DNA of 24,000 bases, from contig JBFHXN010000003.1 of NCBI GenBank assembly GCA_041598955.1, positions 1 to 24,000 on the forward strand, read 5' to 3'. Positions 4,903-9,176 of the stretch are shown piece by piece (position 1 is the stretch's first letter; each line of letters opens with the position of its first letter). The translations under genes were made by a program, and so were the position numbers. Under the pieces are notes generated by a model that did not search any database, had not been told where the DNA came from, and was given only the letters and a program-made list of their open reading frames with translations. Source of the stretch: Desulfuromonadales bacterium (GTDB taxonomy: Bacteria > Desulfobacterota > Desulfuromonadia > Desulfuromonadales > JBFHXN01).

Positions 4903-5208
4903 ATGAGCAGCAAACCGGAGCAACCCGAGGTCAAGCTGGAGATCCAGGTCGACGAGGAGACCGCACAGGGGGTTTACGCCAACCTGGCGGTGGTCAACCA
5001 CAGCGACGCCGAATTCACCCTCGACTTCATCTTCGTGCAACCCCAGGTTCCCCGGGGCAAGGTGCGGACCCGGGTGATCACCTCCCCCCGGCATGTCAAG
5101 CGCCTGTTGCAGGCCCTGCAGGAGAATCTGCGCAAGTACGAGGAGAAGTTCGGCGTCATCGAGACCGGCGGGGCACAGGGCCCCGCGCCGGCGGGGGATT
5201 ATCACTGA
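4903..5208 (+). CDS. DUF3467 family small protein
   Basis: MSSKPEQPEVKLEIQVDEETAQGVYANLAVVNHSDAEFTLDFIF...RVITSPRHVKRLLQALQENLRKYEEKFG matches my memory of the DUF3467 pattern (GxYSNLAxxxHSxxEFxxDF ... P.HAKRLL.AL..N..KYE). The RBS GGGAGGG at 4893-4899 sits 3 nt upstream of the ATG at 4903. The GTG at 4879 used by the track is less likely. Confidence 0.7.
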   Translation: MSSKPEQPEVKLEIQVDEETAQGVYANLAVVNHSDAEFTLDFIFVQPQVPRGKVRTRVITSPRHVKRLLQALQENLRKYEEKFGVIETGGAQGPAPAGDYH

Positions 5209-5228
5209 GGGAAAGGGACGGGGCATCG

Positions 5229-6101
5229 ATGGGCAGACGCCTTTCACTCCTGGCCGCCCTCCTGGTTTTGGGAGGCTGCGCGGCGGCCCGGCCCGCTGCG
5301 ATCCTTGAGGATGCTGTGATCGCCGGCGAGGCCGTCTGGTCCGGGGAGGTGCGCATCCGGGGAATCGTCACCGTGAAGAAGGGGGGACGGCTCACCATCC
5401 TTCCGGGTACCCGGGTGGTCTTCGAGAAGCTCGACCGGGACGGCGACGGCATCGGCGACGGGGAGCTGCTCGTGGAGGGGGCCCTGGTGGCCAAGGGTCG
5501 CCCGGGCGAGCCGATCCTCTTCACCAGCGGGGCCGACAGGCCGGCCCGGGCCGACTGGAAGTTCATCTATCTCGACTTCGCCCGGGAGGGGGTCCTCGAG
5601 CAGGTGGTCGCCGAGTATGCCTACAGCGGTATCCAGGTCCACTTCTGCGCCGCCTCCATCACCGACTCGGTCTTCCGCCACAATGTCGACGGGGTCCGCT
5701 TCTCCACCGCCCGGGTCGAGGTGGCCGGCAACCGCATCCACGACAACACCCACGGCATCCGCTACGAGGAGCGCCGGGGGAGCGGGCGGGTCCATCACAA
5801 CGACATCGTCGGCAACGACGTGGGGATCTTCGTGGTGACCCGCGCCGAGGATCGCACGAGCATCGAGGAGAACAACGTGACGGGCAACCTGCGGTACAAT
5901 GTGAAAATGGGGCTTGACCAGGCCGGGGACGTTACCTTCCCCCGCACCTGGTGGGGCACCGTCGATCCGGCGGAGATCGCCGGCACCTTTTTCGACAAGA
6001 CGTTCGACCCCGCCCTCGGGCGGGTCCGGGCCCCGGAGCCCCTGGCGGCGCCGGTGGCCATCGATACCTGGAGACACGCGCAAGGAGGCTCAGGCATATG
6101 A
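5229..6101 (+). CDS. Beta-helix (PbH1/NosD-like) repeat lipoprotein (paralog A3, short)
   Basis: MGRRLSLLAALLVLGGC carries an LGGC lipobox. The N-terminal segment VWSGEVRIRGIVTVKKGGRLTILPGTRVVF parallels A1 and A2. It also has an acidic loop DRDGDGIGDGE, repeats (NRIHDNTHGIRY, NDIVGNDVGIFV, NNVTGNLRYNV) and a C-terminal TWWG motif. The upstream part of track ORF 4869 is Arg/Gly/Pro-rich off-frame sequence overlapping the DUF3467 gene. Confidence 0.7.
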   Translation: MGRRLSLLAALLVLGGCAAARPAAILEDAVIAGEAVWSGEVRIRGIVTVKKGGRLTILPGTRVVFEKLDRDGDGIGDGELLVEGALVAKGRPGEPILFTSGADRPARADWKFIYLDFAREGVLEQVVAEYAYSGIQVHFCAASITDSVFRHNVDGVRFSTARVEVAGNRIHDNTHGIRYEERRGSGRVHHNDIVGNDVGIFVVTRAEDRTSIEENNVTGNLRYNVKMGLDQAGDVTFPRTWWGTVDPAEIAGTFFDKTFDPALGRVRAPEPLAAPVAIDTWRHAQGGSGI

Positions 6102-6703
6102 AAGGATTCTTCCGGAAATCGGCCCTCGTGGCCATGCTCGCCCTCTTCCCCCTGGCGGTTGTGCAGCCGGCCGTGGCCTGCGTCGGCAAGACCCTGGTCA
6201 TCGGCTCCAAGGGGACGGTCCAGCAGGACATCATGGCCCAGCTCCTCGCCCTGCTCATCAGCGAGCGGACCGGGACCACCTCCAAGGTGGTGAAGTTCGA
6301 TTCGACCGCCGCCGCCCACGAGGCGCTTCTGCGGGCCGACCTCGACCTCTACGTGGAGTACACCGGGGTCGGGCAGACGGAGATCCTCAAGGGGGAGGCC
6401 TTTTCCGACCGGGAACGGCTCTACGGCGAGGTCAAGGCACGCTACAACCAGGATCTCAACCTCATCTGGCTGCAGCCCCTCGGCTTCGAGGAGCCCTCCG
6501 TCGTCCCCCCCGGGGTCCCCGCCCAGGCGGCTCCGGTGGTTCGCAAGGACACCCTGAAGAAGTTCCCGGCCCTGGCCCGGCTCATCGACAAGCTGGGGGG
6601 CGCCATCGACGGCGAGACCATGAAGCGCCTGGAGAAGGAGGCGGCGGGGGAGAATTTGAGAGAGGTGGCGAGACGCTTCCTCAAGGATCGAAAGCTGATT
6701 TAG
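6098..6703 (+). CDS. Exported OpuAC/ProX-like (glycine-betaine-type) substrate-binding-domain protein, unusually short
   Basis: The RBS AAGGAGG lies at 6082-6088, and the ATG at 6098 overlaps the A3 stop (ATGA). The signal peptide is MKGFFRKSALVAMLALFPLAVVQPAVAC. KTLVIGSKGTVQQDIMAQLLALLISERTG ... ADLDLYVEYTGVG and the C-terminal AIDGETMKRLEKEAAGENLREVARRFLKDRKLI resemble the two ends of OpuAC-family binding proteins. The product is only 201 aa. Confidence 0.5.
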   Translation: MKGFFRKSALVAMLALFPLAVVQPAVACVGKTLVIGSKGTVQQDIMAQLLALLISERTGTTSKVVKFDSTAAAHEALLRADLDLYVEYTGVGQTEILKGEAFSDRERLYGEVKARYNQDLNLIWLQPLGFEEPSVVPPGVPAQAAPVVRKDTLKKFPALARLIDKLGGAIDGETMKRLEKEAAGENLREVARRFLKDRKLI

Positions 6704-7638: not shown

Positions 7639-8498
7639 AGTTCCCCGGCCCCCTCCGCCGCTGGCGCCTTGCCAGCCAGCTTCTTTGCCTGGCCGGTTTT
7701 CTCTGGCTCTTCCTGCAGACCGAGTATCGCGGTCTGGACGAGCTTCCCTACCCCGTCAGCCTCCTCTTCCGGATCGACCCCCTGGCCGCCCTGGCCGATC
7801 TTCTCGCTCCCGGCCCCTTCGGCTGGCGGCTGCTCTGGCCGGCCCTGCTCCTTCTGGCCCTCACCGCCCTGCTCGGTCGCTTCTTCTGCGGATGGATCTG
7901 CCCCCTGGGGACCACCCTGGACGGGGCCGGGCGCCTCTTCGGGCGCGGGGAGGGCCCCGTGCGCCCCGTCTGGCGGCGGGTCAAGTACTACCTGCTCATC
8001 TTTCTCACCGCCGCCGCCCTCTTCGGGGTGCAGCTGCTGGGGGTTTTCGATCCCCTGAGCATCTTCCTGCGCACACTCACCGTGGCCTTCTACCCGGCCT
8101 GGAACCTGGCCCTCAACGGAGCCTTCGAGGGGCTCTACGCCCACCTGGTCCCCCTGCTCTCCCCCCTGGCCGACAAAGCCTATCCCCTCTTCCGGGACCA
8201 CCTGATGGCCTTCCATCAGCCCTATTTCACCCTCGCCCTCTTCACCTTCGCTCTCTTTCTGGTGCTGCTGCTGCTCGAGAAGGTGGAGCGGCGTTTCTGG
8301 TGCAAGAACCTCTGCCCCCTGGGGGCCCTGCTCGGGCTCTGCTCCCGGGGCGCCCTGCTGCGCCGGGAGCCCTCCCGGCGCTGCCAGGGGTGCCGCTCCT
8401 GCGCCGAGCTCTGCCGGAGCGGTGCGGTCACGGCCGAGGGGCGAAGGCCCGAGGAGTGTCTCCTCTGTTTCGATTGCACCGGCTTCTGCCCGGAGTAG
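7635..8498 (+). CDS. NapH/NosH/MauN-like integral-membrane 4Fe-4S polyferredoxin (ends at an in-frame TAG)
   Basis: The GTG at 7635 overlaps the DUF362 stop (GTGA). Several hydrophobic helices are present. The motif CGWICPLGT and a second WCKNLCPLGA are typical of NapH/NosR-type membrane domains. Two ferredoxin motifs follow: CQGCRSCAELC and CLLCFDCTGFCP. The 287-aa length is NapH-like. Confidence 0.75.
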   Translation: MKFPGPLRRWRLASQLLCLAGFLWLFLQTEYRGLDELPYPVSLLFRIDPLAALADLLAPGPFGWRLLWPALLLLALTALLGRFFCGWICPLGTTLDGAGRLFGRGEGPVRPVWRRVKYYLLIFLTAAALFGVQLLGVFDPLSIFLRTLTVAFYPAWNLALNGAFEGLYAHLVPLLSPLADKAYPLFRDHLMAFHQPYFTLALFTFALFLVLLLLEKVERRFWCKNLCPLGALLGLCSRGALLRREPSRRCQGCRSCAELCRSGAVTAEGRRPEECLLCFDCTGFCPE

Positions 8499-8597
8499 AA
8501 GGTCCGCTTCCGGTGGAAGGGGGAGGCTCCCCCGGGAGTCGATCTCCCCCGGCGTGGGGTCCTGGCGGCTCTGGCCGGAGGAATCCTGGTCGCCCCG

Positions 8598-9176
8598 GTG
8601 GCCCGCATCGCCCCCGCCGAGGACCGGATCGAGCCCTATCTGCTGCGCCCCCCCGGGGCTGTGGCGGAGCAGGAGTTCCTGCGGCGCTGCATCCGCTGCG
8701 GGGAATGCATGAAGGTCTGCATCGGCCAGGCCCTCCACCCCGCCTTCCTGCAGGCCGGCGCCACGGGAATCTGGACACCCCTGCTCATGGCCCGGCTCGG
8801 CTACTGCGAGTACAACTGCACCCTCTGCGGCCAGGTCTGCCCCACGGGGGCCATCCGGCGCCTCCCCCTGGAGGAGAAGCGCAAGGTGGTCATCGGCCTC
8901 GCGGTCTTCGACAAGGACCGCTGCCTCCCCTTCGCCAAGGGGGAGGAGTGCCTCGTCTGCGAGGAGCACTGCCCCACGGGGGAGAAGGCCATCGTCTTCG
9001 ACGAGCGGGAGCTGTTCGTGGCGGGAGAGACGAAGCGGCTGAAGCTCCCCCGGGTGGTGGAGAAGCGCTGCATCGGCTGCGGGATCTGCGAGACCCGCTG
9101 TCCCCTGGAGGGGGCGAGCGCCGTGCGGGTGATCAGCGAGGGGGAGAGTCGAAGGAAGAGGGACGACTGGGTCTAG
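8598..9176 (+). CDS. NapG-like 4Fe-4S polyferredoxin; coding-like sequence continues upstream to 8499, in frame with the preceding gene
   Basis: LLRPPGAVAEQEFLRRCIRCGECMKVCIGQAL is the NapG-type signature. Further clusters are CEYNCTLCGQVCPTGAI, CLVCEEHCPTGEKAI and CIGCGICETRCP. The first canonical start is a GTG at 8598, which lies inside a hydrophobic segment. Positions 8499-8597 are in the same frame, have about 80% GC3, and encode a Tat/anchor-like PRRGVLAALAGGILVAPVA. Confidence 0.65.
   Translation: MARIAPAEDRIEPYLLRPPGAVAEQEFLRRCIRCGECMKVCIGQALHPAFLQAGATGIWTPLLMARLGYCEYNCTLCGQVCPTGAIRRLPLEEKRKVVIGLAVFDKDRCLPFAKGEECLVCEEHCPTGEKAIVFDERELFVAGETKRLKLPRVVEKRCIGCGICETRCPLEGASAVRVISEGESRRKRDDWV

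Follow-up and report, generated by a model that had tools for sequence, protein, structure and literature searches.

A conserved gene pair encoding a Tat-exported DUF362 protein and a fused polyferredoxin as a candidate periplasmic redox module in diverse bacteria

The Tat-DUF362 and polyferredoxin genes form a conserved pair

In a 24,000-nt stretch of DNA from a Desulfuromonadales bacterium (GCA_041598955.1, contig JBFHXN010000003.1, positions 1 to 24,000; hereafter the window), two adjacent genes at 6715-9176 on the plus strand encode a DUF362 protein exported by means of twin-arginine translocation (Tat) and a polyferredoxin (PFD) that combines NapH-like and NapG-like parts. We propose that these genes make up a self-contained, membrane-anchored periplasmic redox module, with PFD as the electron conduit and the DUF362 protein as its catalytic partner, and we assign this reading a probability of about 0.6. 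The functional claims made here are based on gene context and predicted structure. The initial annotation of this DNA had described an operon tail with a NapGH-type electron-transfer unit serving the Tat-exported DUF362 protein and lacking a known catalytic subunit, and the two-way synteny reported below supports that description.

To follow the pair across genomes, a DUF362 alignment was searched against one genome per species and the best 80 loci were kept. NapH-like and NapG-like parts lay contiguously, on the same strand and just downstream of DUF362, in 76 of these 80 loci; two of the four misses were contig ends. The loci span about ten phylum-level groups, Desulfobacterota among them. 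Carriers belong to Desulfuromonadales, Geobacteraceae, Desulfobulbaceae, Desulfobacterales, Syntrophorhabdus and Syntrophaceae, and further to Nitrospirota, Acidobacteriota, Verrucomicrobiia, Zixibacteria, Caldithrix, Ignavibacteria, Aminicenantes and candidate division CSSED10-310. Geotalea toluenoxydans, Geomonas paludis, Desulfuromonas acetexigens and Geoalkalibacter ferrihydriticus are cultured carriers. The distance from the DUF362 stop codon to the PFD start has a median of 6 nt and is at most 50 nt in 53 of the 76 loci, and the two genes overlap in the window and in three related loci (L004, L005 and L087). A twin-arginine (RR) motif is present at the DUF362 N-terminus in 79/80 loci. 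In the reverse direction, metagenome contigs were scanned with a PFD alignment from distant lineages, which gave 65 informative loci. DUF362 was adjacent to PFD in 59 of them (48 directly upstream and 11 downstream).

No third conserved gene, regulator or lar gene was found among 1009 clustered neighbour open reading frames (ORFs), in which just DUF362 and PFD recur. In Desulfuromonas sp. AOP6 the pair occurs alone, with unrelated genes on either side. Because no other neighbour recurs and the pair can stand alone in this way, we take the two genes to be the conserved unit. No known terminal reductase or oxidase was detected nearby or upstream in the relatives examined (L004, L005 and L087). 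The region upstream of the window was judged from such relatives, the window's own beta-helix gene having retrieved only a 1.7-kb contig. The initial annotation had held that its hypothesis would fail if such an enzyme were encoded immediately upstream or if DUF362 and NapGH-like genes were not syntenic elsewhere; close relatives carry no such enzyme, the genes are adjacent in both searches, and a catalytic subunit of known type is absent from the operon and from the upstream region in relatives.

A literature search returned no functional study of DUF362 and no published description of its pairing with PFD. The PFD family itself is already known, so far only as a model of co-operative insertion by the Sec and Tat pathways. 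What appears to be new from these genome comparisons is its conserved Tat-DUF362 partner, so that electron delivery of the NapGH type would here serve a client of a new kind. Through this conserved one-to-one partnership PFD acquires a probable client, while DUF362 probably acts as a redox enzyme outside the cytoplasm.

Variations on the arrangement were seen at a few loci. Extra Tat-DUF362-like genes are present in L053, L073 and L081, and in L073 and L081 the additional copy is divergent and lies upstream. In L078 and L084, and only at these two loci, a 380-aa membrane-bound metallophosphoesterase is encoded 15 nt before DUF362. It resembles the YkuE-like family, the third candidate Sec/Tat dual-targeted family in Tooke et al. 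(PMC5449189).

PFD is encoded by one fused gene that carries a stop codon in the window

The NapH-like part (7635-8498) and the NapG-like part (ending at 9176) had originally been annotated as two chained genes. This was wrong: both lie in one shared frame of 513 codons (7635-9176, plus strand), with only a TAG codon at 8496-8498 between them. The next in-frame ATG, GTG or TTG past the TAG occurs only at 8598, and the stretch from the TAG to 8598 encodes PRRGVLAALAGGILVAPVA, a twin-arginine motif and hydrophobic helix that the NapG-like domain needs and that aligns with the NapG N-terminus. The window is 99.5% identical to a 13.6-kb contig from the metagenome-assembled genome (MAG) GCA_041589715.1 (L001), which has GAG at this codon and encodes a single 513-aa gene. 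Moreover, the best 120 PFD homologues are all 496-561 aa long, and 71 of 73 other loci carry both halves in a single unbroken frame. From the intact gene in L001, the full-length homologues and the 71 intact loci, we conclude that the NapH-like and NapG-like parts are one fused gene. By the same comparison, the TAG in the window would be a nonsense mutation of recent origin or else a fault of the assembly. Owing to this premature stop the module may therefore be inactive in this particular strain, unless the base is an error of the assembly.

The first half of PFD contains two CX3CP and two CxxCxxCxxxC motifs in a motif scan, and a NapG-like domain with four [4Fe-4S] motifs follows the fifth helix, giving a total of five helices, six iron-sulphur (Fe-S) motifs and two CX3CP motifs. 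Hydropathy peaks were found at about residues 62-89, 120-152, 196-214 and 308-326, while the first helix (about 12-30) lies under the scan threshold and was read by eye. The twin-arginine segment of the window PFD, PRRGVLAALAGGILVAPVAR, stands directly before the fifth helix. This internal motif (RR306-307) and the helix, placed at 8550-8612 by hydropathy and motif scan, would make up the Tat-dependent segment. Among 73 orthologous linkers, 70 have this RR and the exceptions that were inspected have KR; the hydrophobic helix and RPPGA come next. Both motifs highlighted by the initial annotation, CGWICPLGT and LLRPPGA...CIRCGEC, were found in the sequence. The Fe-S motifs of the NapH-like half are predicted to be cytoplasmic and those of the NapG-like half periplasmic.

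All family models for the separate proteins scored below their cut-offs, both for NapH/MauN (TIGR02163, 70.0 bits vs 213; NF007013, 68.7 vs 234) and for NapG/MauM (TIGR00397, 94.6 bits vs 178.85; NF007012, 107.7 vs 269). By its sequence features, the 7635-9176 product is instead a member of the PFD family of Tooke et al. 2017, who showed that PFD Q1NSB0 of delta proteobacterium MLMS-1 is inserted by Sec and Tat together (PMC5449189). That work describes PFD as a NapH-NapG fusion and NapGH of E. coli and Wolinella as a quinol dehydrogenase; Tat-dependent translocation of the PFD C-terminal domain was determined by experiment on the MLMS-1 protein only (PMC5449189). The window protein shares with MLMS-1 PFD a four-helix NapH-like part with cytoplasmic Fe-S motifs, an RR motif directly before helix five, a NapG-like part with four [4Fe-4S] motifs and positive charge following the fifth helix. 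It differs in that the window copy has a premature stop. Furthermore, the MLMS-1 study dealt with membrane insertion only and named no partner or function, whereas here PFD has a conserved Tat-DUF362 partner.

The DUF362 protein is predicted to have a LarA-like fold

The DUF362 gene (6715-7638, plus strand) encodes a 307-aa protein that matches PF04015 with 167.4 bits (gathering threshold 24), covering profile positions 1-199 of 200, and that carries an N-terminal DRREFVRR motif. As it has its own Tat signal, it is expected to be exported in a folded state. The family is large: a first search gave over 7000 relatives, and 6123 cluster representatives were obtained at E ≤ 0.001. In other proteins, DUF362 domains are reported to be commonly joined to Fe-S-binding domains (PMC5742341).

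The initial annotation had suggested that a structure prediction be inspected for cofactor pockets. An AlphaFold (AF2) model built from an alignment of 40 orthologues was confident (pLDDT 87) and predicts a LarA-like alpha/beta fold with a conserved polar pocket. When this model was compared with the PDB by Foldseek, 19 chains matched at E ≤ 0.001 and all were LarA-family proteins (best E about 1e-7, TM score about 0.5 on the query). Apart from the family of LarA, the lactate racemase with a nickel-pincer nucleotide cofactor (PDB 5HUQ, 2YJG, 9EIA and 9Q3J), nothing in the PDB matched the fold of the model significantly. Conservation was measured over 57 diverse Tat-DUF362 sequences, in which Lys80, Asn82, Asp119, Asp180, Asn184, Lys189, His191, Lys201, Asn202, Arg211, His215 and Asp237 are invariant or nearly so. 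These sequences also share two conserved glycine-rich loops and have no conserved cysteine.

A relationship to LarA was also visible between the sequence families. In LarA, Lys184 tethers the cofactor, His200 binds nickel, and His108 and His174 are catalytic. Run on true LarA proteins, the Pfam DUF362 model gave 22-26 bits across residues 82-245, a region that includes all four of these residues; the L. plantarum LarA sequence was confirmed against 5HUQ. With 25.7-26.1 bits, Loigolactobacillus LarA (P0395-P0397) exceeds the DUF362 gathering threshold of 24, and at the level of sequence these scores are a direct bridge between DUF362 and LarA. This is in line with the placement of DUF362 and the LarA N-terminal domain in one Pfam clan, CL0471 (PMC11770544). 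Other searches did not connect the two. Neither Lar_N (PF09861) nor LarA_C (PF21113) matched the window protein, for which DUF362 was the sole Pfam match with the E limit relaxed to 10. Our own hidden Markov model of 116 Tat-DUF362 sequences did not detect LarA, and a PDB sequence search with DUF362 profiles returned nothing meaningful. The proteins also differ in that mature DUF362 has about 265 aa compared with about 420 aa for LarA, and in that DUF362 is Tat-exported and paired with a polyferredoxin.

Proposed redox function of the pair and alternatives to it

In the proposed mechanism, PFD would be the route by which electrons cross the membrane, connecting the menaquinone pool, or else a donor in the cytoplasm, with its periplasmic Fe-S domain. 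The DUF362 protein, carrying a metal or organic cofactor that would be loaded in the cytoplasm before export, would dock at this domain and catalyse a redox reaction on a periplasmic substrate. By analogy with NapGH, we lean towards electron flow from quinol to DUF362, i.e. towards reduction. That the module is quinol-linked, as it had been labelled, we likewise infer by analogy, since the characterised NapGH/NosGH relatives are described as quinol dehydrogenases that feed periplasmic reductases (PMC5449189).

The likeness to NapGH (of E. coli and Wolinella succinogenes) and NosGH lies in homologous domains (NapH 70 bits, NapG 108 bits) and in the presumed electron transfer between quinol and a periplasmic enzyme. 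Here, in contrast, the two parts are fused in one polypeptide and score under the family cut-offs, and no NapA, NapB, NapC or NosZ is encoded with the window pair, NapA and NosZ also being absent from L004, L005 and L087. Moreover, the adjacent Tat protein is predicted to be LarA-like in fold, unlike a molybdo- or copper enzyme. A second comparison is with MsrPQ and the fused haem-molybdenum protein Sco3746, in which a membrane electron-input part is joined to a Tat-exported catalytic part, either as separate genes or as a Sec/Tat dual-targeted fusion (PMC5449189). These proteins are unrelated to the present pair and use haem b and a molybdenum cofactor, where the pair would combine Fe-S clusters with a LarA-fold protein.

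Several points weigh against this redox reading. Even in NapH-type proteins the quinol site is only presumed; LarA chemistry, being redox-neutral, does not call for external electrons; and a hydride-type cofactor pairs unnaturally with one-electron Fe-S carriers. In the reverse scan, 6 of the 65 PFD loci (about 9%) show no DUF362. The PFD AlphaFold model, built from 34 homologues, has a mean pLDDT of 44, and the topology given above is drawn from hydropathy and the published family. The residue correspondence with LarA is weak as well: hhalign, run with one LarA sequence and with a set of 120 LarA homologues, placed DUF362 His191/Lys201 on LarA His174/Lys184, next to a shared EAD motif, at E 0.3. 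A homology search for further LarA proteins gave only sequences with 77-99% mutual identity, too similar to improve the profile. The partner of LarA His200 was ambiguous, and in one alignment His200 lay within a LarA-specific insertion. Finally, extracellular scaffolds carry some DUF362 domains joined to CBM9 and dockerin modules (PMC5742341), a place that no polyferredoxin could reach.

The foremost alternative, which we judge unlikely, makes DUF362 a redox-neutral isomerase or epimerase of LarA-like type, with a hydroxy-acid or sugar-acid of the periplasm as its substrate, and leaves to PFD only the reductive activation or repair of an oxidation-sensitive cofactor. NosR, which is thought to maintain nitrous oxide reductase, provides a parallel for such a repair role. 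The sole fold relatives of DUF362 are indeed racemases and epimerases dependent on the nickel-pincer nucleotide, and the extended gene cluster of the window is rich in beta-helix and beta-sandwich proteins, folds that are common in carbohydrate-active proteins. The DUF362 proteins attached to carbohydrate-binding and dockerin modules without an electron supply (PMC5742341) fit this explanation too. However, a transmembrane polyferredoxin kept one-to-one with its partner, by genes that are often translationally coupled, would be a heavy investment for repair. In addition, the Lar_N model failed on DUF362, the Tat-DUF362 profile misses LarA, and no lar biosynthesis genes recur beside the module.

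A reversed direction of electron flow has a lower probability still. DUF362 would then be a periplasmic dehydrogenase, from which PFD passes electrons to the quinone pool or a cytoplasmic acceptor. Fe-S chains run both ways and the sequence does not fix the direction; LarA catalysis begins with oxidation of the substrate and transfer of a hydride to the cofactor. The description of NapGH/NosGH as quinol dehydrogenases feeding periplasmic reductases (PMC5449189) argues for flow towards DUF362 instead.

We consider it very unlikely that DUF362 is an assembly or escort factor of PFD, with the beta-helix proteins or an unlinked enzyme as the true client. Accessory genes are frequently found beside redox subunits, and genes for secreted beta-helix proteins adjoin or overlap the module in this lineage. 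About 90% of the loci with the pair have no beta-helix genes, though, and no other neighbour is conserved; furthermore, Tat export and a strongly conserved polar pocket fit an enzyme better than a cytoplasmic chaperone. A degenerate Nos/Nap accessory cluster that has lost NosZ or NapA, which the Pfam 'NosD' label of the beta-helix proteins and the resemblance of the PFD halves to NapH and NapG might suggest, was rejected as contradicted by the synteny counts, with NosD, NapH and NapG models far under their cut-offs and NosZ, NapA, NosF and NosY absent here and in relatives; chance adjacency is likewise excluded, because the pair is conserved in about ten phylum-level groups and in both search directions.

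Returning to the redox module, the link to LarA raises a further and distinctly tentative idea, on which we would place only modest odds. Tat-DUF362 could be an unrecognised LarA-related branch that holds a nickel-pincer-type or other cytoplasmically inserted cofactor on conserved Lys/His residues, works in the periplasm and is wired to the respiratory chain through its own PFD. If true, LarA-type chemistry would here, for the first time, serve a net oxidoreductase coupled to the membrane, and the enzyme would be widespread among anaerobic bacteria from many phyla. The fold link suggests one more class of LarA-type or nickel-pincer enzymes, a kind that is being actively sought in the field; a 2026 search for nickel-pincer enzymes reported an unrelated aldo-keto-reductase family (PMC13524815). 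The carrier groups dominate anoxic sediments, so that a quinone-linked reaction in their periplasm could be of consequence for the cycling of elements.

Beta-helix, beta-sandwich, OpuAC-like and DUF3467 genes are optional companions of the pair

In the window, the DUF362-PFD pair ends a single long run of plus-strand genes that extends from the window edge to 9176. The first visible gene (6-1097), the 5′ end of which is probably outside the window, encodes a secreted right-handed beta-helix protein (Pfam NosD 93 bits, Beta_helix 82 bits). It is followed by a secreted beta-sandwich protein of the CarboxypepD_reg, transthyretin-like type (1316-2347; PF13620, 43 bits), with a signal peptide visible in the translation. 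Next come a 457-aa secreted beta-helix protein (2328-3701; Beta_helix 110 bits, NosD 90 bits), the gene for which is also found in L007, L010, L011, L053 and L087, and a second secreted beta-sandwich protein (3698-4738; CarboxypepD_reg PF13620, 57 bits; DUF4198 PF10670, 48 bits). After an intergenic repeat element (4741-4862), as had been noted, lies the gene for a 101-aa DUF3467 protein (4903-5208; PF11950, 96 bits), which has no signal peptide, is expected to be cytoplasmic and is a facultative companion of the pair. The run continues with a 290-aa beta-helix lipoprotein with the lipobox LGGC (5229-6101; NosD 35 bits, Beta_helix 34 bits).

The gene at 6098-6703 encodes the protein first described as a mini binding protein, and it is indeed a short (201 aa) OpuAC-like periplasmic binding-protein homologue with a conserved Cys at the end of its signal peptide. 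It scores 75.8 bits against PF04069 (threshold 21.2) and 43.6 bits against the OsmF model NF049931 (cut-off 400). No transporter partner genes for it are present in the window cluster. The gene positions proposed for 4903-7638 held up, all on the plus strand, with domain scores supporting each gene, as did the close chaining of the genes by an ATGA overlap at 6098, an 11-nt gap ahead of 6715 and a GTGA overlap at 7635.

This extended cluster (beta-helix, beta-sandwich, OpuAC-like and DUF3467 genes) accompanies the pair in about 8 of ~85 DUF362-selected loci, seen in the window, L005 (Geoalkalibacter ferrihydriticus), L006, L007, L010, L011, L046, L087 and L053 (a Nitrospirae MAG). L006, L007 and L009-L012 each have DUF3467 a short way upstream of the DUF362 block; in L009 and L012 it directly precedes DUF362 without beta-helix genes. 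Orthologues of the beta-helix lipoprotein stand directly before DUF362 in L046, L053 and L087, and OpuAC-like orthologues occur in L005, L006, L007, L010, L011 and L053. In the close relative L087, an FG-GAP/ASPIC protein opens the operon together with an 802-aa membrane protein that has a spermine-synthase-like domain; three beta-sandwich/beta-helix pairs come after these, and then DUF362 and PFD. The same extended gene kinds are present in L053 (8001-13628), with two DUF362 paralogues, an FG-GAP/ASPIC gene between them and one PFD after. Since the same gene kinds recur in L087 and L053, we regard the extended cluster as real, recurrent and optional, and its arrangement as probably mobile. 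The physical coupling of the module to beta-helix and beta-sandwich genes, as first proposed, is therefore real in the window and some relatives but restricted to this small share of loci, the pair also occurring alone.

The initial annotation had also called the beta-helix lipoprotein NosD-like. This applies at the level of fold and repeats, as the proteins share with NosD, the periplasmic beta-helix protein of NosDFY, right-handed parallel beta-helix repeats and a periplasmic location. It does not extend to the family, because the beta-helix proteins score 21.9-58 bits against TIGR04247 (49.5 bits for the gene at 6-1097), with a cut-off of 300, and, in contrast to NosD, they occur in repeated pairs with transthyretin-like beta-sandwich proteins. 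NosF, NosY, NosL and NosZ are absent from the cluster, and the Nos resemblance thus appears to be one of fold only. In this lineage, the beta-helix, beta-sandwich and OpuAC-like proteins may supply, bind or present the substrate, although the core unit does not need them. Beside the cluster, Geoalkalibacter (L005, 1708-7005) and the close relative (L087, 12453-17718) share a second conserved block, which encodes an AAA ATPase, an FmdE-domain protein, an ArsP_1 permease, a beta-sandwich protein and a beta-helix protein fused to a PQQ-type beta-propeller.

Repeats, transcription signals and other features of the window

The element upstream of DUF3467 belongs to an intergenic repeat of about 115 nt. 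Its two copies (4741-4862 and 9186-9302) are 82% identical, have terminal inverted repeats CTGYTGAAAAAC ... GTTTTTGAGCAG and, in direct orientation, bracket the block from DUF3467 to PFD. The terminal-repeat motif has three matches compared with 0.05 expected. Copy 1 is absent at this site in L007, L010 and L011, where DUF3467 follows the beta-sandwich gene after ~25-75 nt. An exact 23-nt repeat, ACGGGAGAGGGCCGGGGTGAGGG, occurs at 1196-1218 and 9419-9441, in both cases intergenic, with none expected by chance; this repeat gives rise to spurious 'TGEGRGEG' ORF translations.

A consensus scan of 4600-9500 found no sigma-70-like promoter, and terminator-like matches inside the genes of this region were at chance level in number. 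Around the module, neither the window nor seven loci gave an Rfam match to a riboswitch or leader. Read directly from the sequence, a GC-rich hairpin (GGCCGCC-TCGAAG-GGCGGCC, 9334-9357) lies between AAA and TTTT. It is likely a bidirectional terminator shared with the convergent GGDEF gene; the terminator consensus scan skipped it, its T run being shorter than five T. Convergent to the module on the minus strand, 9470-13501 encodes a GGDEF response regulator, a small 2x[4Fe-4S] ferredoxin, a protein with a CdhD-like domain and DAHP synthase. Of these, the first and the last also occur downstream of the module in Geoalkalibacter (L005).

The window has a G+C content of ~68%, and the closest named relatives of its proteins are from Desulfuromonas, Trichloromonas and Geoalkalibacter. 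About 10 kb from the DUF362-PFD module, a separate operon on the opposite strand (18568-23168, minus) encodes a 1100-aa molybdopterin-oxidoreductase plus 4Fe-4S protein followed by an NrfD-type membrane subunit, which are ActB/ActC-like or Qrc-like. A tRNA-Arg gene (anticodon CCG) is located at 15989-16065 on the minus strand.

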